Positions 3,251 to 20,909 of a DNA stretch of 64,000 nucleotides are shown piece by piece (within the stretch, counting starts at the first letter, position 1; each line of letters begins with the position of its first letter). This DNA comes from Candidatus Thorarchaeota archaeon (GTDB lineage Archaea > Asgardarchaeota > Thorarchaeia > Thorarchaeales > Thorarchaeaceae), in contig RDOC01000001.1 of the NCBI GenBank assembly GCA_011364985.1, forward strand, positions 159,576 through 223,575, given 5' to 3'. The notes beneath the pieces were generated by a model. It saw only the letters and a list, made by a program, of their open reading frames with translations. It was not told the DNA's origin and did no database searches. The translations under genes were made by a program, and so were the position numbers.

Positions 3251-5668
3251 TCATCTATGGAAAGTCGCAATCACTGTGTTGGACATTGGCAAAGCGCGAA
3301 TGTATGCAATTCCAACCTCCTTCACTCGGTTTACAATGCCTCCTCCAAAGACTTTCATCATAGGCAAGGAGAAATACGTAGGCACATGAATTTCCAATTC
3401 ATTTGGCAGCTGAGTCATCCGGATCTCAATCTGGTGTTGATTTGTAGATGCTCCAACTTCAATGTCTACCTCACCCAGTGACAGTGGAATTCTATCTACG
3501 AGGAGGGGTGTGGGAGAAGTATACCATTCATCAGGAATGGCCGGGAGGACAACGATATCCGACTCCATTTCAGATACCACCATTTCGCGCAAGAGGATGA
3601 GAAGATCTGCTGCTGCAATCATGCTGCATCCATCGCCAGAGTGTCCTGCACCCGAATGTGGATCGACAAACTCAGGAAGAGTATGGTATTCCGAGAGCAG
3701 CTCTATTGCTCTGCGAAGAATATTCCATGTGCCAGATTTGCGAAGCGTGAAGACGTAGTAGTGGGCCAAACGCAGTGCAAGATGACTGGAAAATCGTTTC
3801 TCCTCTCCCGGGATCATTACTAGATTCCTTCGCATAAGGTTGTCCAAAGTGGTGTTTAGCGACCATTGTTCAAGACTGCTGTCGATAGTACCCTTTCCGA
3901 GAAGAGCAATTGCTGCAAGGAGGTCAAGTGATGCAAGCGATAGATCGGGGTCATCCGCTTGGTCTACGACACTTTGGTAGACCCTCACTGATTTGGATTC
4001 AAGCCATTTTGCATAGTCGTTCTGCAGACTACAGAGCGATTCTGCCAATTGGGTCATTTCAAGTGCCTCGAGAGACACCACACCGATTCTTAGAGCTGCT
4101 AAATCCCATAGTGAATCAACAATATCACGAAGTCCAAACTGCATTCTTATTGGAACAGGAGCCACATCCGTTGTGATGTCCTCACGCAATTCAGCCGTTA
4201 CCGCCAGTATTTCATCGACACCCAAGAACTCCTCTTTCGGCTCACTGTCTTCTCTGATTTTACCATGAATACTCCCAGACTTCACTGATTCATCAGCCAA
4301 ATCGCCAGACTCACTTTGCACTCTGATTCTGGCCTCAATTGTCAATTGCATCTTAGAATAATATGCGCCAATCAATGGGCTTATTGTCTTCAGAAACGTC
4401 ATATCTCGGAAATAGAAGAAATACTGAAGAATTCCCCAAATCAACGAACTCTGGCTATTAGGAGGTGTTTCCTTTTCATCCGAAAACCACTTCCGGATTG
4501 CTTTAAGGGCAAGTTCTTTCGCTAGCTCGGAACAGCCAGAGCGGCATAGTGCAGAAAAGACTCTAGCCCATTCGATAGACTCGGTTGAGCCTACTGAGCT
4601 AATGCCTGAGTTCAGCTTTGTGTCAACTTGTTGTGCAAGAACGGCCTTCGCCTGCAGAGCGGCATCATTCAGCACTACCTCTGGAAAAGTAAGATTCGTT
4701 GTCTTTTCGGCGAAATCGAACCACATGCCTACATATTCATCCCTTACGTTCGTATTCATTTTGAAGGGGATTTCGTCTGTCTTCGTCATTCTGGATAAGG
4801 GACTCACAAAGAAATACTTCTTGGATTCAGCCGGAGCTAAATTGACTCTGTACTTCAGAACAGCAGTAACGAGACCTTTGACGCTAGAGAACTCTGTGTC
4901 CTTTCGGTCATTCTCTTCTTGGATAGTGGCGATCAGATTCGGATTATCAGCAGTTGAAAGAACGATTGACGATGCCAGCTTGTCAAAGAGCATGGCAACG
5001 TAACCATTGGAAATCATCATCTTCTGAGCGGAATCATACTCGACGGACTCCAATGGTTCGACCCCTCTAACGGAAGTGGGTCTAAGAACTGCATAGAAAA
5101 CAAACTCAGTATCATTCAGCGAATGGTTCTTTAAGTGAATCTCATTGTATAGAGCTTCGCGTCCGCTCGATGTGCCATGATAAATCTGGCGAATCACTTC
5201 GATCGCCCCAAAGAATTTTCTCCATTCGAAAAGCTGATCATCAGGACTATACAGCTCGATTCTTGATTCGTTTCGGTCAACCAAGGCAGGGAAGACCATA
5301 GAGCCTTTATCCTCAAACCAGAAATCAATGGACCCACATTCACGATTAGCTGTCACAAGTCCTGTTTCATCCATTATTGCATAATTGCTGGATCCCACTC
5401 CGCCAATGGTGATCCAGTTCTGGCTCATGTTATTGGAAAGGGCATCCTCGGATATACTGCCAGATTTGGAAATTGATGCCTGCTTTGTAGCCCAAGCGGG
5501 GAGCATCCATGATTCCGAGGAGGTATAAACTACCTTGTTCAATCCAACCTGTAGATCACGTATTTCAAGTGCTGCGGAAGAATGTTGAAAGGATGACGAC
5601 GGCACTTTGTTATTTCGTGCTACTCGCCTGAATCGCTCAATAAGGTTATCATCTGTTAGGTCCAACAC
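3251..5668 (-). CDS. Six-hairpin (alpha/alpha)6 glycosidase-like protein, possibly inactive
   Basis: 805 aa ORF: beta-rich N-terminus (NWITIG...GLVT...SIDFW), helical core, LPEFVDPHSGAGHSGDG...AAADLLILLREMVV and a C-terminal LPAIPDEW beta domain typical of GH15/65/95-clan proteins. Confidence 0.55.
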   Translation of the reverse strand: MLDLTDDNLIERFRRVARNNKVPSSSFQHSSAALEIRDLQVGLNKVVYTSSESWMLPAWATKQASISKSGSISEDALSNNMSQNWITIGGVGSSNYAIMDETGLVTANRECGSIDFWFEDKGSMVFPALVDRNESRIELYSPDDQLFEWRKFFGAIEVIRQIYHGTSSGREALYNEIHLKNHSLNDTEFVFYAVLRPTSVRGVEPLESVEYDSAQKMMISNGYVAMLFDKLASSIVLSTADNPNLIATIQEENDRKDTEFSSVKGLVTAVLKYRVNLAPAESKKYFFVSPLSRMTKTDEIPFKMNTNVRDEYVGMWFDFAEKTTNLTFPEVVLNDAALQAKAVLAQQVDTKLNSGISSVGSTESIEWARVFSALCRSGCSELAKELALKAIRKWFSDEKETPPNSQSSLIWGILQYFFYFRDMTFLKTISPLIGAYYSKMQLTIEARIRVQSESGDLADESVKSGSIHGKIREDSEPKEEFLGVDEILAVTAELREDITTDVAPVPIRMQFGLRDIVDSLWDLAALRIGVVSLEALEMTQLAESLCSLQNDYAKWLESKSVRVYQSVVDQADDPDLSLASLDLLAAIALLGKGTIDSSLEQWSLNTTLDNLMRRNLVMIPGEEKRFSSHLALRLAHYYVFTLRKSGTWNILRRAIELLSEYHTLPEFVDPHSGAGHSGDGCSMIAAADLLILLREMVVSEMESDIVVLPAIPDEWYTSPTPLLVDRIPLSLGEVDIEVGASTNQHQIEIRMTQLPNELEIHVPTYFSLPMMKVFGGGIVNRVKEVGIAYIRALPMSNTVIATFHR

Positions 5669-5872
5669 GGTCCAACTCCAATTTGTGAGAGTGAGAAGCT
5701 GGCTGATGAGTCCTAAGTTGCGGAATAGGTAATTAATGTAGCTTGTTCATTTTTCGGACATGTCATGGATACCTAAGCCTTAATAACACTCTCAAGCCCG
5801 ATTGTACAAAAGCTCGATATGATTGCGTATTAAGCCCAAATGCTGATTGACCAAAGATATGAGGGATTTGCT

Positions 5873-7060
5873 ATGGCGGAAGTCCTCACGAAACCGTCTC
5901 GTAGAATTAGGAATATGGTTGCAAAGGAACTCAGATTAATAGCTAAAGACAAGGTTGCTCTGTTCTTGATCTTTCTGCTTCCAGCCGCGCTGATTGGAAT
6001 GCTCTGGTGGGTTACGGATATGAGCGACATGGGAGATATTCAGTTAGGCGATGATGACGGCGGCACAGACATTGGCACAAGCACAAACATAACCGAAGCT
6101 GAGGACACAGGTATCAGCATTGGGCTATTAGACTTCGACACAACACGCGTCTATGAAGGAGAGGACCTCTCTACAAACTTCACAAACTACTTGGAGATGT
6201 TCGTTGACGATTTAATAATGTACAACGACACGGCAGATGCTTTTCGAGACTTGTATGAGGGCGAAATCCTTGGATATGTAATAATCCCTGATGGATTCGA
6301 GGCCAACCTGACTGAGAACATACCAACATATGTTGAAATTCATGTAGATGCCACAGCACTATTGGATCAAGCTTCTGTTCAAGGTGTAATTCAGGGGGCT
6401 ATAATAAGCTTCAGGGCATCAAAACTGTGGATTAGATCTGAAGTGTTTCCTTCGATGATAATCGAATTCCAGCCAGAAGGAAGCTACCTTGCTGCAGTCT
6501 TTGGAGCATTCATTGTCATAATATCCTCATACCTAGGAATTGCTATGACTTCTGCCCAATCCATTGTAGGTGACATTCCTCTTCGTAGAATGTTACTCAC
6601 CCCGACAAACAGGCTAGAAGTGATTACTTCTAAGGCCATCGCCTATGTGATTATTGGTTTCTTCCAATCGCTTCTTCTCATTTCCCTCTGGATTATTGCT
6701 TTCGATTTGGAGATGAACACTGGTTTTGGGAGTCTGGTTATCATTATGAGCCTAACAGCTTTGACAGGATCATCTACAGGGATAATCATCTCTGCAGCTG
6801 CAGGAACAAGATTGCAGGCCAATCAGATCTTTCTCTTTGTCATGTTTGGCTCTGTTATAATGTCAGGATTCTTTATCGACGTGGGTTGGCTCAATGAAGT
6901 ACTCCCCCTGAATCTGGGAATGAGCGTCCTGATTGATACAGCATTCAAAGGATTATCATTACTTGATATCATAGATGCCATTCTTAGACTTCTTGCAATT
7001 TCATTAGGGATGATACTAGCTGCATCATTCATTTTCTCTAGAAAGCCAACTCTTGACTAG
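5873..7060 (+). CDS. ABC-2 type transporter permease
   Basis: AKELRLIAKDK...LLP TM1, large extracellular loop (VIIPDGF), LRRMLLTPTNRLEVITSK motif and five further TMs. Start placed at ATG 5873. Confidence 0.9.
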   Translation: MAEVLTKPSRRIRNMVAKELRLIAKDKVALFLIFLLPAALIGMLWWVTDMSDMGDIQLGDDDGGTDIGTSTNITEAEDTGISIGLLDFDTTRVYEGEDLSTNFTNYLEMFVDDLIMYNDTADAFRDLYEGEILGYVIIPDGFEANLTENIPTYVEIHVDATALLDQASVQGVIQGAIISFRASKLWIRSEVFPSMIIEFQPEGSYLAAVFGAFIVIISSYLGIAMTSAQSIVGDIPLRRMLLTPTNRLEVITSKAIAYVIIGFFQSLLLISLWIIAFDLEMNTGFGSLVIIMSLTALTGSSTGIIISAAAGTRLQANQIFLFVMFGSVIMSGFFIDVGWLNEVLPLNLGMSVLIDTAFKGLSLLDIIDAILRLLAISLGMILAASFIFSRKPTLD

Positions 7061-8764
7061 GTGATGGACATGATAAAACAAGATCGTGACGAAGCATCAG
7101 AAATCGAAGCAAAACCAACCTTTGTAGAAGAAGCCTACTTCTCTGGGGGAAGACTGAACGAAGCCATTGATTGGTGTCTTGCTCGTCACGACCGAGAAAT
7201 TCACTGTATAGTGGAAGGAGTACTCAACAGTACAAGCAGGGAAGTACGTTTCAGCGGAAGGCTTCTGAAGATAAAGAAGAGTGTCTTGACACGGAGATTT
7301 GCCGCCCTTGTTGAAGAGGATTTGAGAAAGAGGAAGAGAGGAGATCTTGATGCAATTCTCACAGTGGGCGGAGAAGGGGCAACTCAAGAGGATGTTGCAG
7401 CCACCCAAATAACACTTCGTAATTACTTGAAAAGAAACCTCGCAGAAGACTTGTATTATGATGGACGTGACCTTCAGCAGGCAGTGAAGGACCTTGAAAA
7501 GATGAAGAGCACACAGAGCCTCTGTACTGTGTGGGGTAATAGAGCCTCTGATAGGCTTCCGATTATGATAAGCGGAATGGTTGTAGGATTTGCCATTGAA
7601 GCAATGCAGCCTGCTCGCGGCACGATTCTACCTGAAGGGTTTCTTGAAGTCAGGGTTGAGCCAGAGGGCTCTGTGGGAGATCCGAAGATATACTTGGTCG
7701 CTCAACCACAGCTATTCATTGGTCCAGGGTATAATCCCAATCTTACAATTATAGCCAGCAAGGTTTACATCCAGCCTTATGCCTGGAAAGAAGCGCCAGC
7801 CTATCGAGATGTCGTTGAAGCTAGGAACCTCACGGTCTCTCTAAAGACCGGCAAGAACCTAGTAGAGAATGTATCATTTGCATTAGAAGAGGGAGAGATG
7901 CTTGCAATAATCGGTGAGTCGGGAGCTGGCAAGTCAACAACTGTGAAGGCACTAATTGGGGATATACCTAGTACAGGAGTCGCCAGAATCGCAGGAGTCG
8001 ATTCCCGACAAACAACAAAGGTAAGGCACTTCTTTGGATATTGCCCACAAGACCTATCCTACATGTACGAGACCTTCACACCATTGGAGAATATCATTGC
8101 GTTTGGGAAACAATACGATATACCGGAGTGGCAATTGATTCAGAGAGGGAAATCGCTGCTTAGGGACTTTGGGATTCTGGAAAAAGGAAACAATGCTACA
8201 AGAGAATTGAGTGGAGGACAGCAACGACGCGTATCCATAGCTGTGGCCTTGGCCCACATGCCAAAGGTACTGTTGATGGACGAGCCGACTTCCGGACTCG
8301 ACCCAGACAACAGAAATGAGCTATGGAACTATCTAGCCTATATCAATCAGGAATATGGAACCTCAATCATTGTAATCACTCACTACCCGATAGAGGCAGA
8401 ATTCTGCGATAAGGTTGCGGTCTTTATTCGTGGAAAATCACTTGTTGCCTTTGGCAGCCCACAAAGACTCAAGGAGTCCCTCCCAAATAGAGGCTTTTCT
8501 GTTGGAGTCGTGCTTGAAGAGGTGGATCCGCGAGCAAGGACGATCCTTGAGGAAGTGGAAGGAGTCCGCTTTGTGCTTCAGCGAGGAGAGCTACTCAAGG
8601 TATTCACAGATGAGCCCCTTGAGAAAGTGGCTCAGAAATGTGTCTCCGCACTCGATACCAGAAAGATTGCGGTTAAGATTGTGAAGACAAAATCCGTGGC
8701 CGATATGGTGGACTATTACATAGCAATCACTAGGGGCCTAGTAACAGGAACAATCGAGAAGTGA
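7061..8764 (+). CDS. ABC-2 ATP-binding protein with ~245 aa N-terminal TrmB-C-like tandem domains
   Basis: Walker A GESGAGKST, LSGGQ, Walker B LLMDEPT, H-loop ITH. The N-terminal extension contains TVGGEGATQED. Confidence 0.9.
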   Translation: MMDMIKQDRDEASEIEAKPTFVEEAYFSGGRLNEAIDWCLARHDREIHCIVEGVLNSTSREVRFSGRLLKIKKSVLTRRFAALVEEDLRKRKRGDLDAILTVGGEGATQEDVAATQITLRNYLKRNLAEDLYYDGRDLQQAVKDLEKMKSTQSLCTVWGNRASDRLPIMISGMVVGFAIEAMQPARGTILPEGFLEVRVEPEGSVGDPKIYLVAQPQLFIGPGYNPNLTIIASKVYIQPYAWKEAPAYRDVVEARNLTVSLKTGKNLVENVSFALEEGEMLAIIGESGAGKSTTVKALIGDIPSTGVARIAGVDSRQTTKVRHFFGYCPQDLSYMYETFTPLENIIAFGKQYDIPEWQLIQRGKSLLRDFGILEKGNNATRELSGGQQRRVSIAVALAHMPKVLLMDEPTSGLDPDNRNELWNYLAYINQEYGTSIIVITHYPIEAEFCDKVAVFIRGKSLVAFGSPQRLKESLPNRGFSVGVVLEEVDPRARTILEEVEGVRFVLQRGELLKVFTDEPLEKVAQKCVSALDTRKIAVKIVKTKSVADMVDYYIAITRGLVTGTIEK

Positions 8765-13143: not shown

Positions 13144-14133
13144 ATGTCTGATGCTGAGAAGACTCAAGCACTCGAGATTGACATCAAGGACCTCAAGGTT
13201 GCCTTTGGTGATTTTTACGCACTTAATGGGGTTTCGTTTTTCGCTTACAAGAAGGAGTTCCTCGGAATCATTGGGGCCTCTGGAGCAGGGAAGACCACTG
13301 TTCTCCGTGTTCTTACAGGACAGGTCGGACCAACCTCTGGTCAAGCCTTTGTTGGCGGCTTTGATGTGACTAAGAAGAGCGACCTAATCAGCCTTCTAGT
13401 TGGCTACGTTCCTCAACTAGAGCATCTCAGTCTGTACTATGACTTTACCGCCCTTCAAAATGCCGAGTTCTTTGGTAGGTGTTTTGGCCTGAGGCCTAAG
13501 GAGATAGAGAAGCGTGCTCGAAACATCCTGACAATTCTTGGTTTCGATGAAGAACTCATGACAAAGGCGGTAAAGAGACTCTCAGGTGGAGAGAGGAAGC
13601 GTGTTTCCATTTGTCTTGGCATGATTCATGATCCCCCAGTGCTGTTGCTCGACGAACCTACAACCGGCCTCGATGCACACCTCAGACACGAGACTCTGAA
13701 CTACCTGAAAGAACTGAACTACGAACTGGGAACAACGATGGTCATCATCTCCCATGACCTTGAGATTGTTGACTATTGTACACGAGTATGCCTGCTGGAA
13801 GACGGGCTCATTAGCCAATTTGGCACTCCAGAGGAGTTGATCTCCACGCTGCCCGGAAAAGGCGAGAGTTTGAGGATTGTTCTTCCAAAGATAACGACTG
13901 GAATCATGAACCAAGTGATGTCACTTCCTGGCGTCGAATATGTGGCTGCAGCCGGTAGAAACGCAGTCAAGCTTTTCATTGATGATCCGGATAAGCAGAT
14001 TCTTCCAATTATCAAAATGCTCAACCAGAGAGGTATACCCTTTGAGGAGATATCCCTAGTAGAGAGCGATTTCTTCGATTACTTCCAAGTGAAGCCTTGG
14101 AAAGACAATGGTGGAGGAGAGAGTACTCCGTGA
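13144..14133 (+). CDS. ABC-2 type ATP-binding protein
   Basis: GASGAGKTT, LSGGE, LLLDEPT, ISH and a C-terminal DUF4162/ACT-like extension. ATG 13144 follows the stop of the preceding gene. Confidence 0.92.
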   Translation: MSDAEKTQALEIDIKDLKVAFGDFYALNGVSFFAYKKEFLGIIGASGAGKTTVLRVLTGQVGPTSGQAFVGGFDVTKKSDLISLLVGYVPQLEHLSLYYDFTALQNAEFFGRCFGLRPKEIEKRARNILTILGFDEELMTKAVKRLSGGERKRVSICLGMIHDPPVLLLDEPTTGLDAHLRHETLNYLKELNYELGTTMVIISHDLEIVDYCTRVCLLEDGLISQFGTPEELISTLPGKGESLRIVLPKITTGIMNQVMSLPGVEYVAAAGRNAVKLFIDDPDKQILPIIKMLNQRGIPFEEISLVESDFFDYFQVKPWKDNGGGESTP

Positions 14134-17100
14134 AACGAAACAGAATACTCCTAGTATTATTGTGTGCTTGTGTGCTAATCGGACTCCAAGCATTAATTGG
14201 AGATCCCACAGGGCAATCTGTTGCCATCATACAGGACAGGTCCAGTGCAGTAGTCGCGGAGATTGCTCCGTTCGACACCGCGATTGTGTGGTCCAATGAC
14301 ACAGGAGGACAGGTGGCTGGTATTGCCATTGCTAATTTTGATGGCGATAACTACGATGAGATGGCGGTGGTCACTCAGGCCGGGGTGTTACAGCTCTATG
14401 ATCACACTGGGAATCGTCTCTGGAGCAGAGACCTGATGACTCCAGCCAATGACATCGCGACCTTGGATAGGAACGCCGACGGAGAAATGGAGATCGTGGT
14501 GGGAACTGACGATGGCTTCATGGTGATGACAGCATCCCAGACCGTTCTTGCCAATATTGCCCTTCCAAATCCAGTACAGGCCGTTGATTCCGGTGACCTT
14601 GATCTGGACACCTTTGACGAGGTCTTCATTGGATGCGATGACAACCATCTCTACGCCTATGAGGCAAATGGCACCTATATCTGGGAGTTTGCAAGCAATG
14701 GGCCCATCACTCAGGTTCTGGCCGCTGATGTTGACCTCGACAGTGGAGCAGAGGTGCTTGTCGGGTCCTCAGCTGGAAAATTCGCTCTGGTCGAAACCAC
14801 TGGAGCCGTCACATTCAGTGTAGACAAGGCTTATGCTATCACTGGAGTGGCTGCAGGAAACCTGCTGAGCGGGGGAAATCTAGAGGTAGCCTTTGGTACC
14901 GCTGGGGGCGAAATTGCAGTCTATCGAAGTGCCGGCACTCCAGAATATGGCATCTACCATGATGATGCAGTGACCGCCTTGCACATTGGACAGCTTGTTT
15001 CTGGAGGCTTTGATGAGATGGCCTTTGGCACTGCAGGAAACGAACTGCACGTCTACAATGGCACCGGCTCTATGCAATGGAATAAGACGTTGGCAGGCCA
15101 AGTAAACAGCATCCGCTTTGCCAATGTGGGCGGTCTCCCGAACAATCAGCTCATCTCTGGTACTGGGGCTGGGACCCTCAACGTCTACAATGCCACAGGT
15201 TACAGGGTGGTTCAGACTACCCTTGATACTTTCCAAGGAGTCATTGCCATCGGTGATATCGACACCAATGGCAACAGCGAGTATGCCGCAGGAACCAACA
15301 ACGGCATCATTAACGTCTACGGAAGGGATCTTGATGGCGACGACCTTGCAGATGCGCGAGAAACCCTCATCGACCTCACTAACCCCGCAGAGCCTGACTC
15401 GGACTATGACAATTTAGATGATGGTGAAGAGGTTCTTCAGTATGGTACAGATCCAAATAGCGACGACTCAGACTCAGATAAGCTGAAGGACTTCTCAGAA
15501 GTTCACACCTATGGAACCGATCCCAACGATGCTGATTCTGACGATGACCTTCTCACAGACTGGCAAGAGATCTACCTCGGTACCGATCCCAATGACGAAG
15601 ACTCGGACGGAGATGACTTGACAGACTTTGAAGAGAACAACGTGACTCTCACGGACCCACTTGATTCTGACACGAACAACAATGATATCAATGACGGGGC
15701 TGACGATAATGATGGCGATGGCCTGACAAATCTGCAAGAAGTGCGTCTTACGCTTACCGATCCCAATGATGTGAACACAGATGGAGATGCGCTCAGCGAT
15801 TATTATGATGATGAGGACGCAGATAGCCTCGCCAACTGGAAGGAGATTCAGGTCGGTGCGGACCCGCTTGATCCTGACTCAGATGATGACTTGCTTTTGG
15901 ACGGTGCAGAGGTCAAGATATGGAAGTCCAGCCCCACGAATCCAGACACTGACGGAGACGATTTGACCGACTATGAAGAAGTCATGATTGTTGGCTCGAA
16001 CCCCACCAAAGCTGATACTGACGAAGACACGCTGTCTGACTACGAAGAATACGTGACCTACGGAACCAACGTCACCAATGCCGACTCGGACTATGACGAC
16101 TTGGAAGATGCAGACGAGATCAATGAGTACTTCACAGACCCTCTCGATTGGGACTCGGACGGAGATACTCTGTCGGATGGCGACGAAGTAAATGTATATG
16201 GTACTGACCCCAACTCGGTGGACACGGATCTAGACACGCTTTCGGATGATTATGAGATTACACAGGGAACGAACCCCAAGAAGGCAGACACCGACGGAGA
16301 CACGATAAATGACGCGCTTGAATTGCTTACCTATTTCACCAATGCCACAAATGTCGACACCGATGGCGACCTGATTCGGGACAACGATGAGATCAAGTAT
16401 CTGGCATTTGGTTTCGACCCCACGGATTCGACTTCTTGGGGGCAGCCAGAGAGCGATTATGATTATGATGCTGACGGTGACTTGCTTACTAATGGTCAGG
16501 AGATATACCTCACCCGAACGCATCCAGGCCGAATTGACTCAGACCTAGATGGTACCAACGACAATCTTGAGGATGCTGACTTGGATGACATCAACAACTA
16601 CGATGAGATCAACGTGACTGATACAGACCCTCGAAATCCTGATACCGATGGGGATGAAGTGAAGGATGGTGATGAGTATCTCATTTTAGGAACTGACCCC
16701 AACGATGAGGACACGAATGATAATTCAATCAACGATTATGATGAGGACCCCGATGAGGACAACCTCTCCAATGGTGTCGAGCTCTATATCACCGATACTG
16801 ACCCCTTGGACGCAACAACTCACGGGACAACGCCAGACGACGAATATGATGGTGACGGAGATTTCTTGCCAAACTGGTTTGAAGTCTTTAGAACTGGGAC
16901 TGACCCGCTGTACAATGATACCAATGACAATGGCATCTTTGACTGGGAGGAGGACCCAGACAATGATGATTTGACCAATCTGCAGGAGTATGAGGTATGG
17001 AGAGATTTTGGGTACGAGTGTGATCCCCTCGATGCAGACTCTGACAATGACCAACTAACGGATGGTGAAGAGGTCCTCTACACGCTCACCGATCCCAGCG

Positions 17101-20100
17101 ACAATGATGACGACGATGACACGATTCTCGATGGTCAAGACGACCAGGACAACGATGGCCTAACAAACATAGAGGAACTGCGGATCTATAACACGAATGC
17201 CACCAATTGGGATACCGACGGAGACATGATCCGCGACGGGCTTGAGATTCAGATAGGGCTGAATGCGACAAACTTTGACACGGATGGGGATGGGATCTAT
17301 GATGGATGGTTCGATGAGGATGGGGACGGAATCTATGACCCTGAAGAGCTAGGAGAAGATGTGGATGCAGATGGCATTGTTGACCCTGAAGAAACCGACC
17401 CGAACAACGCAGATTCCGACGGGGATGAGTTAGATGATTATGAGGAATACTTAGTGGGCACGAATCCGTTGAAACCAGATTCGGACGAAGATTTGCTGCT
17501 TGATGGTCAGGAGGTTCTTCACTTCGGGACGAATCCGCTTTCAAACGACACTGATGGAGATCTCCTTGATGACTATATTGAGGTGAATGTTACCCTTACC
17601 GACCCAACTAATATGTGGTTCAATGGCACTCACACGGATTACCAAATTGACTCGGATAATGACATGCTGTCAAATGGTGACGAAATCTACATCTATGACA
17701 CTAGCCCCGGCGACTTCGACTCCGATGACGACCTCATTGGAGATGGCGAAGAGATACTTGTCTATGGCTCAGACCCGCTAAAATGGGACTCCGATGGAGA
17801 CCTGCTATCGGACTACGATGAGATTATGAGATACGGGACGAACCCCGCGGCCCAGGACTCTGACGCAGATCAGGTCGATGACTATTCGGAGATTGTGATT
17901 CTTGGCACTGATCCGAACCTATGGAGCACAGCAGGCAACGGCACTTCAGACTATGACCGAGATGAGGATGGAGATGGTCTAAGCAACGGTCTCGAACTCT
18001 ATGGTTACCACAGCAATGCCACGTCTTCTGACACTGATGGAGATGAATTGGAAGATGGCATAGAGGTCTATCTCGCAGGGAGCAGCCCGACCGACAAAGA
18101 CACTGACGATGACGGTGTTAGTGACTACTTAGAATACATGGTCTACCACACAGACGCTTCGGGCTCGGATTCAGACTCAGACGATTTGACGGACTACTAT
18201 GAAATCTACGTGTCCCTTACGAGTCCTACTGACTGGGACTCAGACGATGACCAGCTCTCTGACGGTGACGAGGTGAATGAATATGGGACAGACCCCAAGG
18301 CAGCGGACTCGGACAACGACCAGCTCAATGACAGAAGGGAGCTGTTTGAGGTTGGTACCGACCCCTTGCTCAACGATACTGACGGAGACACCCTCAGTGA
18401 CTACGAAGAATGGGTTATTTACGGTACAGACCCGCTAGTGGCCGATGCAGACGAAGATGGACTTAACGACGCAGAAGAAATAGAGAACGGAACTGACCCA
18501 GAGAATGAAGACTCCGACTTTGATTCCCTTAGCGATTATGATGAGGTCAATATCTACGAAACCAGTCCTATTAACGCAGACACAGACTTTGATAACCTTG
18601 CAGATAGTGATGAAATATTCAATAGCAAGACCGATCCCAATCGCGCGGACACCGATGGGGACTCAATCCCGGATGACCTTGATGATAAGGACGCCGATGG
18701 AATAAGCAACTTCGATGAGATCTACGTGTATGAAACCAACTGCACTCTCTTTGACACCGACGGGGATATGCTAGGGGATGGCTATGAAATCGCACAAAAT
18801 CCATGGGTAACCGACCCGAATGAGGTTGATACCGATGATGATTTGCTTAGCGACTGGGATGAAATCTTCATGTGGTCTAGCAATCCAACACGCAAGGATA
18901 CCGACGGGGATCTCCTCCAAGATGGTGAGGAAGTTCTGACCTGGCACACCGACCCTAACCTCGATGATACAGACGCCGATATGGTCAACGATTATGATGA
19001 AATCAAGGTCTTCGAAACAAACGCGTTGGACCCCGATTCTGATGATGACAATTTGTCCGATGGTTATGAGTTGTTCGTCTACAACACGGACCCCCTCAAT
19101 GAAGACACAGACAATGACAGACTACTGGACGACGAAGAGGAATTCTATGGTACTGACCCAAGAGTGGAAGATACAGATGAAGACGAACTAACAGACTATG
19201 AAGAAGTGTACTTGACGGGTACAGATCCGACCCTATACAGTACGGAGGGCGACGGAATTTCAGACGCCGACCGTGACGGCGATAACGACATGCTCACAAA
19301 TTCTCAGGAGATTCGTCTGACTAAAACAAACCCTGCTAGCAATGATACCGATGCCGATGGCAAAATCGATGGATTAGATGACGAGGATAGAGACCTCTTG
19401 ACCAACTACGAGGAATGCGTCATTACTGAAACTGACCCCAGAGACAGAGACTCCGACGACGACGGTGTTAGCGACCTGAACGACGATCAGGACGGGGATG
19501 GACTCACGAATGGTGATGAGGTGCACATTTATCTGACAGACCCGCTACGTCGCGATACTGACGGAGACAAACTGTCTGACAGAGAAGAGGTTGAAGACTA
19601 CGGCACAGATCCGCTCGTCAAGGACACGGACATGGACGAAATCGAGGACTACGAGGAGATAAACACCTATCACACCAATGCGACCTACTTTGATACAGAC
19701 TACGACCTGCTCAGCGATTGGATCGAAATCTTCCTAACTGAAACTGACCCGACGAATATGTGGTACAATGCGACTCATACGGACTATGAGATTGACTCAG
19801 ATGGTGACTTCTTATCCAATGGTGCAGAGATCTACAATTACGCCACATCACCGGGAGACCCTGATTCGGACAACGACAACTTGCTTGATGGCGAAGAAAT
19901 CGCACTGGGAACGGACCCCCTTGAAGAAGACTCAGACTTGGATAATCTCATTGACGGCTTGGAAGTGCACGTATACCAAACTGACCCCCTCTCCGAGGAC
20001 ACCGACGAAGACCAAATCAATGACTACGATGAAGTGCGCATCTACTTCACGAACCCAAACGTTGAAGACACGGATCAAGACAACCTATCAGATTACGATG

Positions 20101-20909
20101 AAATCTTCGTCTACTTTACGGACCCGAACTCCGGAGACTCCGATAGGGATCAGGTCCCTGACTATACCGAAGTTGTAACCTATGCCGAGTATAACATGAA
20201 TCCCTGGCAGGCAGATTCTGACAGCGACGGGCTGAGCGACAGCCTTGAACTCTACACAATAGGCACGAACCCCGGTCTGAATGACACAGACGCGGATGGA
20301 CTTGACGACTATGCAGAATACTACACCTACAAAACCTCCCCGTTGGCTCCTGATACAGACCAAGATGGCTGGACGGACTATGAAGAAGTCACCATCTACG
20401 GGACCGACCCGCTAAAGGTCGACACGGATGCAGACGGTCTCATGGACTCAATGGATTTCAATCCGCGGCTCCACTGGGTCGTGCCAATCATCGTTCTACT
20501 ATTCGTTGGCGGCATCACCGCAGTAGTCTATAAACGCGTACGTAGAACTACACGCAGAGAGGAGTACATCACAAAGGCAGAGCCTGCAAGCCTCGGTCTT
20601 GAGAAGGGGATGGACATCGCGGTGGAGTACAAGATACGCGAAGGCAAGGTGGTCTTTGGCGTGGCGATACGGAATAACTCTGCGAACCCCATGAGCAATG
20701 TGCAGGTGGTGCTTGGTATACCCGAACTGACAGATACCATCCAGAGCAAGAGCGCAGGTTCTGTTGAGCCCGGCGATAGTGCAGTGGTAGAGATCGCCTT
20801 CGAATTGCAGCCCGGCGCCGAGGGCGAGCTAGTAGGCATGGTGGAATATGACTCCGTCGAGGGTGAGCACCGTATAGTGAACCTAAAGCCCGTCAGGATT
20901 GTAGCATAG
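14130..20909 (+). CDS. Giant single-pass surface protein: FG-GAP-like beta-propeller, TSP3-like Ca-binding repeats, TM, cytoplasmic Ig-like domain
   Basis: GTG 14130 overlaps the upstream TGA (GTGA) and is followed by signal peptide MKRNRILLVLLCAC. DxDxDGxxE(V/I)xVG blades, then D(S/T)DxDxLxDxxE...TDP repeats, TM WVVPIIVLLFVGGITAVVY plus KRVRR, and a C-terminal beta sandwich. Confidence 0.9.
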   Translation: MKRNRILLVLLCACVLIGLQALIGDPTGQSVAIIQDRSSAVVAEIAPFDTAIVWSNDTGGQVAGIAIANFDGDNYDEMAVVTQAGVLQLYDHTGNRLWSRDLMTPANDIATLDRNADGEMEIVVGTDDGFMVMTASQTVLANIALPNPVQAVDSGDLDLDTFDEVFIGCDDNHLYAYEANGTYIWEFASNGPITQVLAADVDLDSGAEVLVGSSAGKFALVETTGAVTFSVDKAYAITGVAAGNLLSGGNLEVAFGTAGGEIAVYRSAGTPEYGIYHDDAVTALHIGQLVSGGFDEMAFGTAGNELHVYNGTGSMQWNKTLAGQVNSIRFANVGGLPNNQLISGTGAGTLNVYNATGYRVVQTTLDTFQGVIAIGDIDTNGNSEYAAGTNNGIINVYGRDLDGDDLADARETLIDLTNPAEPDSDYDNLDDGEEVLQYGTDPNSDDSDSDKLKDFSEVHTYGTDPNDADSDDDLLTDWQEIYLGTDPNDEDSDGDDLTDFEENNVTLTDPLDSDTNNNDINDGADDNDGDGLTNLQEVRLTLTDPNDVNTDGDALSDYYDDEDADSLANWKEIQVGADPLDPDSDDDLLLDGAEVKIWKSSPTNPDTDGDDLTDYEEVMIVGSNPTKADTDEDTLSDYEEYVTYGTNVTNADSDYDDLEDADEINEYFTDPLDWDSDGDTLSDGDEVNVYGTDPNSVDTDLDTLSDDYEITQGTNPKKADTDGDTINDALELLTYFTNATNVDTDGDLIRDNDEIKYLAFGFDPTDSTSWGQPESDYDYDADGDLLTNGQEIYLTRTHPGRIDSDLDGTNDNLEDADLDDINNYDEINVTDTDPRNPDTDGDEVKDGDEYLILGTDPNDEDTNDNSINDYDEDPDEDNLSNGVELYITDTDPLDATTHGTTPDDEYDGDGDFLPNWFEVFRTGTDPLYNDTNDNGIFDWEEDPDNDDLTNLQEYEVWRDFGYECDPLDADSDNDQLTDGEEVLYTLTDPSDNDDDDDTILDGQDDQDNDGLTNIEELRIYNTNATNWDTDGDMIRDGLEIQIGLNATNFDTDGDGIYDGWFDEDGDGIYDPEELGEDVDADGIVDPEETDPNNADSDGDELDDYEEYLVGTNPLKPDSDEDLLLDGQEVLHFGTNPLSNDTDGDLLDDYIEVNVTLTDPTNMWFNGTHTDYQIDSDNDMLSNGDEIYIYDTSPGDFDSDDDLIGDGEEILVYGSDPLKWDSDGDLLSDYDEIMRYGTNPAAQDSDADQVDDYSEIVILGTDPNLWSTAGNGTSDYDRDEDGDGLSNGLELYGYHSNATSSDTDGDELEDGIEVYLAGSSPTDKDTDDDGVSDYLEYMVYHTDASGSDSDSDDLTDYYEIYVSLTSPTDWDSDDDQLSDGDEVNEYGTDPKAADSDNDQLNDRRELFEVGTDPLLNDTDGDTLSDYEEWVIYGTDPLVADADEDGLNDAEEIENGTDPENEDSDFDSLSDYDEVNIYETSPINADTDFDNLADSDEIFNSKTDPNRADTDGDSIPDDLDDKDADGISNFDEIYVYETNCTLFDTDGDMLGDGYEIAQNPWVTDPNEVDTDDDLLSDWDEIFMWSSNPTRKDTDGDLLQDGEEVLTWHTDPNLDDTDADMVNDYDEIKVFETNALDPDSDDDNLSDGYELFVYNTDPLNEDTDNDRLLDDEEEFYGTDPRVEDTDEDELTDYEEVYLTGTDPTLYSTEGDGISDADRDGDNDMLTNSQEIRLTKTNPASNDTDADGKIDGLDDEDRDLLTNYEECVITETDPRDRDSDDDGVSDLNDDQDGDGLTNGDEVHIYLTDPLRRDTDGDKLSDREEVEDYGTDPLVKDTDMDEIEDYEEINTYHTNATYFDTDYDLLSDWIEIFLTETDPTNMWYNATHTDYEIDSDGDFLSNGAEIYNYATSPGDPDSDNDNLLDGEEIALGTDPLEEDSDLDNLIDGLEVHVYQTDPLSEDTDEDQINDYDEVRIYFTNPNVEDTDQDNLSDYDEIFVYFTDPNSGDSDRDQVPDYTEVVTYAEYNMNPWQADSDSDGLSDSLELYTIGTNPGLNDTDADGLDDYAEYYTYKTSPLAPDTDQDGWTDYEEVTIYGTDPLKVDTDADGLMDSMDFNPRLHWVVPIIVLLFVGGITAVVYKRVRRTTRREEYITKAEPASLGLEKGMDIAVEYKIREGKVVFGVAIRNNSANPMSNVQVVLGIPELTDTIQSKSAGSVEPGDSAVVEIAFELQPGAEGELVGMVEYDSVEGEHRIVNLKPVRIVA
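15327..20465 (+). repeat. Coding tandem repeat array (~22-23 aa bacterial TSP3-like units)
   Basis: Recurring D(S/T)DxDxLxDxxExxxxxTDPxxx over ~1700 aa, roughly 70-80 units estimated from length/period. Units diverge at the nucleotide level. Confidence 0.9.

Follow-up and report, generated by a model that had tools for sequence, protein, structure and literature searches.

Why does an ATP-binding cassette (ABC) ATPase of an Asgard archaeon carry some 245 amino acids (aa) ahead of its ABC domain, and what might this extension contribute to the transporter? The question is raised by a 567-aa open reading frame (ORF) in a 64,000-nucleotide stretch of contig RDOC01000001.1 of a Candidatus Thorarchaeota archaeon (assembly GCA_011364985.1, positions 159,576 to 223,575; hereafter the window). 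A first-pass annotation had read the extension as two tandem sugar-binding subdomains of the kind found in the transcription regulator TrmB, fused to an exporter-class ATPase that a cytoplasmic sugar would gate. As judged from sequence profiles and predicted models, the extension consists of two tandem copies of a strand-helix-barrel module, the one that makes up TrmB's second, sugar-contacting effector subdomain. For its role, sequence, models and analogy together favor an allosteric small-ligand sensor acting on the ATPase, a reading to which we assign a rough probability of 0.38. The features discussed are collected in Table 1, with positions counted along the window.

The fold evidence consists of AlphaFold2 models compared with Protein Data Bank (PDB) chains by VIA-align and Foldseek. 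The model of aa 1–250 comprises two repeats of a strand, a helix and five strands (predicted local distance difference test, pLDDT, 80.1; predicted TM-score, pTM, 0.74), with pLDDT of ~90 over most of the length of copy 1. In VIA-align, copy 1 superposes on TrmB (3qph_A) with Z 15.3 and a root-mean-square deviation (rmsd) of 1.5 Å over 92 residues at 21% identity, model residues 22–126 corresponding to TrmB 248–342, and the next-best fold reaches Z 6.9. Copy 2, modeled alone (aa 126–246; pLDDT 83.4), likewise retrieves 3qph_A ahead of all other folds among 48,161 representative chains (Z 12.9, rmsd 2.6 Å, 96 residues, 12% identity, TrmB 246–342; next-best fold Z 6.0). Foldseek ranks 3qph_A first (E 9.3e-6) and 2f5t_X second (E 8.6e-5) for the aa 1–250 model, and the same two chains lead for copy 2 alone with E-values of 2.3e-3 and 3.6e-3, both above 0.001. 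A likeness to the two-barrel HtrA/DegQ proteases, which supplied the next Foldseek matches, was ruled out by an rmsd of 13–15 Å. With TrmB structures 3QPH and 2F5T ranked first by both programs and the TrmB family of Pfam matched above its cut-off, the assignment of both halves to the C-terminal subdomain of TrmB was borne out.

The runner-up fold for both copies is the Pelota/Dom34 N-domain (Z 6.0–6.9), and the second tier as a whole (Pelota/Dom34 N-domains, Sm/Hfq-like folds and barrels like that of ribosomal protein bL19; Z 4–7) could be taken to indicate an Sm-like or Pelota-N-like module that binds nucleic acid or the ribosome and is functionally unrelated to TrmB. We regard this as very improbable: these folds lie 6–8 Z units under TrmB, within the common-background range of VIA-align, and the sequence profiles indicate TrmB only.

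Among those profiles, Pfam Regulator_TrmB (PF11495) matches aa 31–120 over positions 152–231 of its 233 (E 3.4e-6, 26.9 bits against a gathering cut-off of 22.2). Of the 28 family members, 23 match it as well at E ≤ 0.01, the strongest with an E-value of 2.6e-11. In six distant members (P0128, P0129, P0131, L016, L019 and L022) both copies match it as separate stretches; copy 2 of the window alone had no match in Pfam. Searched against 177,635 PDB sequences, a profile of the whole extension (A2) and one of the pooled copies (A7) each placed the two TrmB structures at the top, weakly (E 0.019 and 0.039 for A2; 0.013 and 0.021 for A7). An NCBIfam scan of the extension returned nothing meaningful, and the structural look-alikes in the ESM Atlas were uninformative, being unnamed clusters with a best score of 0.89.

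The internal duplication had first been proposed from a by-eye pairing of two peptides (aa 32–69 and 138–175), and two further peptides were quoted for the loops (aa 100–117 and 218–235). All four are exact in the translation, and T101–D111 does fall at 7361–7393. At the level of the single sequence, the pairing is no better than chance: pairwise BLASTP of aa 20–125 against aa 128–242 found no similarity (E 7.7). Half profiles (aa 18–127 and 128–245) cut from a 28-member family alignment (A1) behave differently. By hhalign they match each other with a probability of 98.6% (E 7.8e-16, 96 columns) in the register first proposed; 20 column-shuffled versions of the second half gave probabilities of at most 0.9% and E-values of at least 0.063, and the real pair under the same settings gave 98.7% (E 2.9e-16). 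Hidden Markov models built from one copy match the other copy in independent genomes (independent E-values of 3.4e-14 in L016, 1.5e-9 in L019 and 2.8e-8 in L020), and the joint alignment of both copies (A7) has three glycines, G29, G53 and G66 in window numbering, that are invariant across copies. Together with the two-repeat model, these comparisons uphold the duplication, which is detectable solely at the profile and structure level.

Residue conservation was assessed in an alignment of 123 full-length members, i.e., the window protein and 122 stored proteins 480 aa or longer. Only 24 positions of the whole extension are at least 97% identical. Three residues of copy 1 (T101, G103 and D111) are invariant in 123/123 sequences, among members whose copy 1 is as little as 28% identical to that of the window, and the T101–D111 loop is, on this alignment, the most constrained element of copy 1. 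The loop region of copy 2 had been called degenerate. This is correct for the TrmB-type loop in the window, but the region is not unconstrained; it carries a different motif that is strongly conserved in the clade (Q215 and P216 in 117 sequences each, G221 and P222 in 118 each, A232 in 122 and K234 in all 123). In distant relatives copy 2 still has a V-G-G...[DE]-V-x-A loop. Because such a loop is retained there, the ancestor probably had two TrmB-type loops, and the alignment indicates that the one in copy 2 was lost in the main clade and replaced by the other conserved motif.

The sugar contacts named for the TrmB barrel of Pyrococcus in PMC4158304 are Asn305, Gly320, Met321, Val324, Ile325 and Glu326, with Ser229 on the first subdomain. 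The same source describes TrmBL1, Tgr and MalR as retaining just Gly320 and Glu326 among the TrmB contacts, and reports a Halobacterium TrmB-type protein in which Gly337, Glu343 and Asp344, that is Gly-x5-Glu-Asp, are critical for sugar binding. Copy 1 of the window has this triad as G104, E110 and D111, and copy 2 of the window is without it. A literal TrmB loop string had also been quoted earlier; its spacing fits the residue numbers in PMC4158304. Our mapping would place G104 at Gly320, E105 at Met321, T108 at Val324, Q109 at Ile325, E110 at Glu326 and D111 at the Asp that follows Glu326, and R78 aligns tentatively with Asn305. About 10–11 residues that are extra relative to TrmB lie in a low-confidence loop (aa 88–98) ahead of the loop strand.

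Several observations weigh against a TrmB-like sensor. The mapping itself was inferred from alignment ranges on predicted models (residue 126 = TrmB 342) and assumes no gap after aa 99. By this mapping only two of the six named barrel contacts, the Gly and the Glu, are identical in the window, and the residues at Asn305, Met321, Val324 and Ile325 differ. Ser229 and with it the other wall of the cleft are gone, being supplied in TrmB by the first effector subdomain, which is missing from the 567-aa ORF (the PF11495 match begins at profile position 152). Across the 123 sequences, position 104 is G in 84, S in 35, A in 3 and N in 1, and position 110 is E in 55, Q in 40, D in 23 and another residue in 5; the motif GGxGAxxED, whose conservation in orthologues had been set earlier as a test, therefore stands in its core (T101, G103, D111) but not to the letter. 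The sequence-only links to solved TrmB structures are weak: a single-sequence PDB search with aa 1–250 found no TrmB, its best match being a lipoyl-domain repeat (E 0.0013) with no significant stretch, and neither copy-specific profile (A3 for copy 1, A4 for copy 2) retrieved a TrmB chain from the PDB sequences at E ≤ 10. Finally, no sugar-metabolism, glycosyltransferase or sugar-uptake genes were recognized beside the cassette in the region examined.

Such changes would also suit a ligand-free structural or docking module, in which sugar binding has been lost and the barrels act as a fixed spacer, help the protein to dimerize or dock another component of the cassette, such as the second ATPase or the cytoplasmic tail of a membrane-anchored partner. 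Most of the TrmB sugar contacts are changed and subdomain 1 is gone, and the exchange of the copy 2 loop for another strongly conserved motif would fit a protein interface. Nevertheless, the three invariant residues of copy 1 fall within the TrmB sugar-binding loop, the window retains the Gly-x5-Glu-Asp spacing, and distant relatives keep the loop in both copies, which points to a retained pocket. We therefore hold the docking explanation to be rather unlikely, and return to it below with the neighboring genes.

In the preferred reading, the tandem barrels would sense a small cytoplasmic ligand of carbohydrate type, which would bind at the copy 1 loop and might also occupy a cleft against copy 2. 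Carbohydrate is the most likely ligand type because the sole characterized homologue binds sugars via a loop of the T101–D111 type. Since the barrels are fused directly ahead of the nucleotide-binding domain (NBD), occupancy would affect NBD closure, altering the readiness of two NBDs to close and hydrolyze ATP. Sugar gating of the ATPase is thus plausible on sequence, models and analogy. The controlled output may be the permease together with the adjoining membrane-tethered machine described below.

The host of the extension is, by its domain matches, an ATPase of the ABC-2/DrrA class. Pfam ABC_tran (PF00005) covers aa 269–411 (E 6.5e-27), and the translation contains canonical Walker A, signature and Walker B motifs, the last with its catalytic Glu, as well as the H-loop. 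The nearest NCBIfam model is TIGR01188 drrA (aa 268–556, E 4.8e-52), whose 177 bits are under the subfamily/equivalog cut-off of 312; the RbbA and GldA models rank after it, and DrrA1-3_C matches weakly in the homologue P0129. With PF00005, a DrrA-type C-terminal domain and an adjoining ABC-2 permease all present, the exporter-class assignment of the first-pass annotation agrees with our results. The ORF could alternatively start at an ATG at 7064 or 7070. It falls outside the TrmB family of transcription regulators: no PF01978 winged-helix DNA-binding domain was found in it by Pfam, and it is without a complete two-subdomain effector domain. A mis-assembly or false gene fusion was ruled out, because 122 further full-length homologues on many contigs have the same architecture.

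Table 1. Features of the fusion ATPase and its neighbors, in positions of the window.
Feature	Position	Strand	Basis
ABC-2 permease, 406 aa, 6 predicted transmembrane segments (TM), large loop TM1–TM2	5840..7060	+	ABC2_membrane_3 E 1.5e-24, ABC2_membrane E 1.6e-10, hydropathy scan
ABC ATPase ORF, 567 aa: N-terminal tandem barrels, NBD, DrrA-type C-terminal domain	7061..8764	+	Translation, Pfam, NCBIfam
Copy 1, aa 21–126: strand, helix and beta-barrel, predicted type of the TrmB effector-domain C-terminal subdomain	7121..7438	+	PF11495, AlphaFold2 model, VIA-align, Foldseek
Copy 1 loop, T101–D111, T-V-G-G-x5-E-D: putative counterpart of the TrmB Gly320...Glu326-Asp sugar loop	7361..7393	+	123-sequence alignment
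Copy 2, aa 127–241: same predicted fold, diverged loop	7439..7783	+	AlphaFold2 model, VIA-align, Foldseek
Copy 2 loop, aa 213–235: clade-specific motif A-Q-P-Q-L-L-x-G-P...N-P-N-L-T...A-x-K	7697..7765	+	123-sequence alignment
ABC nucleotide-binding domain, aa 251–480	7811..8500	+	ABC_tran match, motifs
DrrA/ABC-2-type C-terminal domain	8501..8764	+	TIGR01188 drrA alignment
Subtilase-GldG/GIFT protein, 1456 aa	8772..13142	+	Peptidase_S8 E 7.1e-42, IFT52_GIFT E 1.3e-9
Second, plain ABC ATPase, 332 aa	13135..14133	+	ABC_tran E 4.2e-26, canonical motifs

The fusion of tandem barrels to an ATPase is old and conserved. A word-indexed search returned 151 proteins at E ≤ 0.001, with 60–91% identity in the extension among the 120 listed; many of them were already tagged PF00005+PF11495 in databases. 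The source labels of the closest relatives are mostly Thorarchaeota, with a few Hod-, Loki-, Odin-, Sigyn- and Promethearchaeota. An exhaustive search with aa 1–250 against 1.84 billion representatives yielded 16 clusters only, all from the ATPase-fusion family. Within the phylum, the extension profile matches 136 of 400 genomes, mostly once per genome and in ORFs of ~550–610 aa. By family, it is present in 80/85 genomes of the window's own family and in 17/19, 5/5, 6/6, 3/3, 11/14, 4/4, 3/3, 1/2, 1/1 and 4/135 of others, the rest having none. A profile search among shorter proteins (47–483 aa) gave 19 matches; each is a fragment of an ATPase from this Asgard family, and none has a different architecture.

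The window's lineage also appears to have divided the TrmB effector domain between proteins. In 31 genomes of its family the barrel part of PF11495 is confined to fusion ATPases, and the first subdomain (profile 1–153) occurs in separate ORFs, most of ~250–290 aa (range 150–352), with two further matches in long ORFs of 1090 and 1299 aa. By these matches, the two effector subdomains sit in different proteins. This separation agrees with the view of the C-terminal part of TrmB as a separable module; Maruyama 2011 (PMC3031468) treats this "sugar binding domain" as a unit that is missing from some TrmB paralogues. The organism's own genome has two TrmB-like ORFs whose PF11495 match is confined to its first subdomain, one of 271 aa (L001, G000:C11:411188-411586, minus strand; profile 2–134 only) and one of 292 aa (L003, G000:C18:50179-50400, plus strand; profile 2–72 only).

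Standalone single-barrel ORFs of 139–168 aa were also observed (L024, G334:C8:66551-66862; L025, G299:C53:10852-11175; also in G333, G335, G319, G298 and G300); those of one genus resemble copy 2, and those of another family copy 1. The neighborhoods of the L024 and L025 barrels consist of unrelated housekeeping genes with no common theme.

The genes around the fusion ATPase were compared across eight loci from eight families (L016–L023, the window's own included; L019 fetched to 20 kb), and the comparison indicates that the ATPase belongs to an Asgard-specific ABC-2 (DrrA/GldA-class) transporter cassette. One or more ABC-2 permeases stand beside it in 8/8 loci. In the window, the permease (PF12698/PF01061) ends at 7060, directly abutting the ATPase start at 7061. 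Downstream, the 1456-aa protein consists of an S8 subtilase (aa 163–453) fused to a GldG/GIFT-like domain, for which IFT52_GIFT (PF23355) scores 37.9 bits against a cut-off of 27.2; a scan places TM segments at aa 7–25 and 1360–1378, followed by a conserved 78-aa helical cytoplasmic tail. An orthologue adjoins the fusion ATPase in 7/8 loci, and L019 has no match within 20 kb. The non-protease part of this protein (aa 500–1456) occurs in 123/400 genomes with nearly the same family pattern as the extension, and within the 135-genome family both match the same four genomes. This co-occurrence reflects co-inheritance of the cassette and is not a statistical test, because related genomes are not independent. 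The gene for the second ATPase starts 8 bases before the stop of the subtilase-GldG gene, and a distinct orthologue is found beside the fusion ATPase in 7/8 loci, the exception (L023) being a 5.8-kb contig. Two ATPases with a single permease gene in the window suggest a heterodimeric NBD pair in which only one subunit has the putative sensor.

The cassette gives the docking explanation further points on its side: the second ATPase and both bitopic giants, whose cytoplasmic tails are conserved, need contacts in the cytoplasm, and the extension and the subtilase-GldG protein have nearly identical phyletic patterns. However, no specific partner was identified. A predicted complex of the extension (aa 18–245) with the 78-aa subtilase-GldG tail scored 0.00 against a mark of 0.32; this prediction had no controls and counts neither way.

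Further observations concern the flanks of the cassette. The second giant is a 2270-aa bitopic, adhesin-like protein (14097–20909, plus strand) with TM segments at aa 12–30 and 2127–2145 and a cytoplasmic tail of 125 aa. Its N-terminal beta-propeller gives weak matches to BBS2_Mid (28.5 bits against 27, no single stretch) and to the BBS7 propeller, and the protein has many CglD-like TSP3 repeats. It is curious, in an Asgard genome, to find a gene with a GIFT domain two genes away from one with a BBS-like propeller, with just the second ATPase in between. Upstream, a divergent 805-aa ORF (3251–5668, minus strand) is conserved beside the cassette in L021 (33% identity); it was considered as a sugar enzyme and rejected, with no sequence match in Pfam, NCBIfam or the PDB.

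The layout recalls the GldA-GldF-GldG system of Bacteroidota gliding, which likewise combines an ATPase, an ABC-2 permease and a large membrane-anchored GldG/GIFT partner. In contrast to that system, the cassette's proteins score under the equivalog cut-offs (GldA TIGR03522, 103 against 402.6 bits; GldG TIGR03521, 12.5 against 389.85), its GldG-like protein comes as a fusion with an S8 subtilase, and it adds a second ATPase and the TrmB-barrel extension. The resemblance is thus, by these scores, one of layout and not of membership, only the GIFT domain passing its cut-off.

A sugar-binding domain on an ABC-2-class ATPase need not be a sensor. In the WzmWzt exporter, as described in PMC9445017, the carbohydrate-binding domain of Wzt recognizes the O-antigen cap, so that the glycan is read by an ATPase-borne domain whose binding modulates ATP hydrolysis. 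By analogy, the barrels could hold the transported substrate, a lipid-linked glycan or glycoconjugate, by its sugar moiety and feed it into the ABC-2 channel instead of sensing a free metabolite. Their homology to a sugar-binding barrel would fit such cargo recognition, as would an archaeal protein from a predicted glycosylation context that PMC5898192 reports to be similar to part of TrmB's sugar-binding domain. Both systems have a cytoplasmic accessory domain on an ABC-2-class ATPase, with sugar binding shown for Wzt (PMC9445017) and predicted here. But the Wzt domain is C-terminal and its partners belong to a glycan pathway, whereas the barrels are N-terminal, tandem and of the TrmB type, with TrmB and no carbohydrate-binding module among the top folds, and the C-terminal region is DrrA-type. 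The partners here are a GldG/GIFT-subtilase protein and an ABC2_membrane_3 permease whose external loop is large, and the models that fit the ATPase best are DrrA, RbbA and GldA (Wzm/Wzt were not compared directly). Moreover, no glycosyltransferase or polyprenyl-glycan genes were recognized in the region of the window examined. We consider cargo recognition improbable.

An allosteric sensor on the ATPase has a precedent in Wzt too, and further parallels among importers. The C2 domain of MetN, the accessory domain of ModC and the CBS domains of OpuA are ligand-binding domains on ABC NBDs that regulate ATP hydrolysis (PMC10710835). Like these and MalK, the fusion ATPase carries a small NBD-fused domain; theirs bind a cytoplasmic ligand or protein and restrict NBD closure (PMC10710835), and in OpuA the sensor is also repeated in tandem. 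Unlike them, with their C-terminal domains of other folds on importers, the extension is N-terminal and its host an exporter-class ABC-2 ATPase. Compared with TrmB of P. furiosus and T. litoralis (3QPH, 2F5T), both copies share the strand-helix-flattened-barrel fold and copy 1 the Gly-x5-Glu-Asp loop in the predicted models. The winged helix, the coiled coil and the first effector subdomain are absent here, the barrel occurs twice in succession on an ABC ATPase, its named contacts are changed at four of six positions, and ~11 residues are inserted at aa 88–98.

The fusion had been thought undescribed. Our literature searches found no published description of a TrmB-barrel/ABC ATPase fusion, and supplementary tables outside these searches might list related architectures; however, databases already tag the PF00005+PF11495 combination, and exporter ATPases of the Wzt type with sugar-binding domains are known (PMC9445017). 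As a general principle, ABC ATPases with accessory domains that bind a ligand are well known. The new elements here are the TrmB-barrel module, present in tandem and at the N-terminus, the exporter class of its host and a cassette specific to Asgard archaea.

A bolder version of the sensor proposal would see in the duplicated TrmB barrel, freed from a transcription factor, a post-translational switch on the ABC motor of a subtilase-GldG/GIFT surface machine. Proteolysis outside the cell, or the handling of surface proteins, would then be gated directly by the carbon status of the cytoplasm, in the manner of FtsEX-like mechanotransmission but with a metabolite as its input. This is conceivable, but we think it a long shot.

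If the barrels do bind a ligand, an exporter-class ABC ATPase would carry at its N-terminus a sensor derived from TrmB and arranged in tandem, and of this we found no example in print. The TrmB "sugar-binding" barrel would then be a sensor module that is mobile and can work outside transcription factors, in a lineage whose regulators retain the first subdomain only and whose ATPase retains the barrel only. The finding also offers a handle on an uncharacterized and widely conserved Asgard cassette, in which an ABC-2 permease and two ATPases are encoded along with two giants, one of the subtilase-GldG/GIFT kind and one adhesin-like. What the sensor binds would provide a first functional lead to the cassette's substrate and role.

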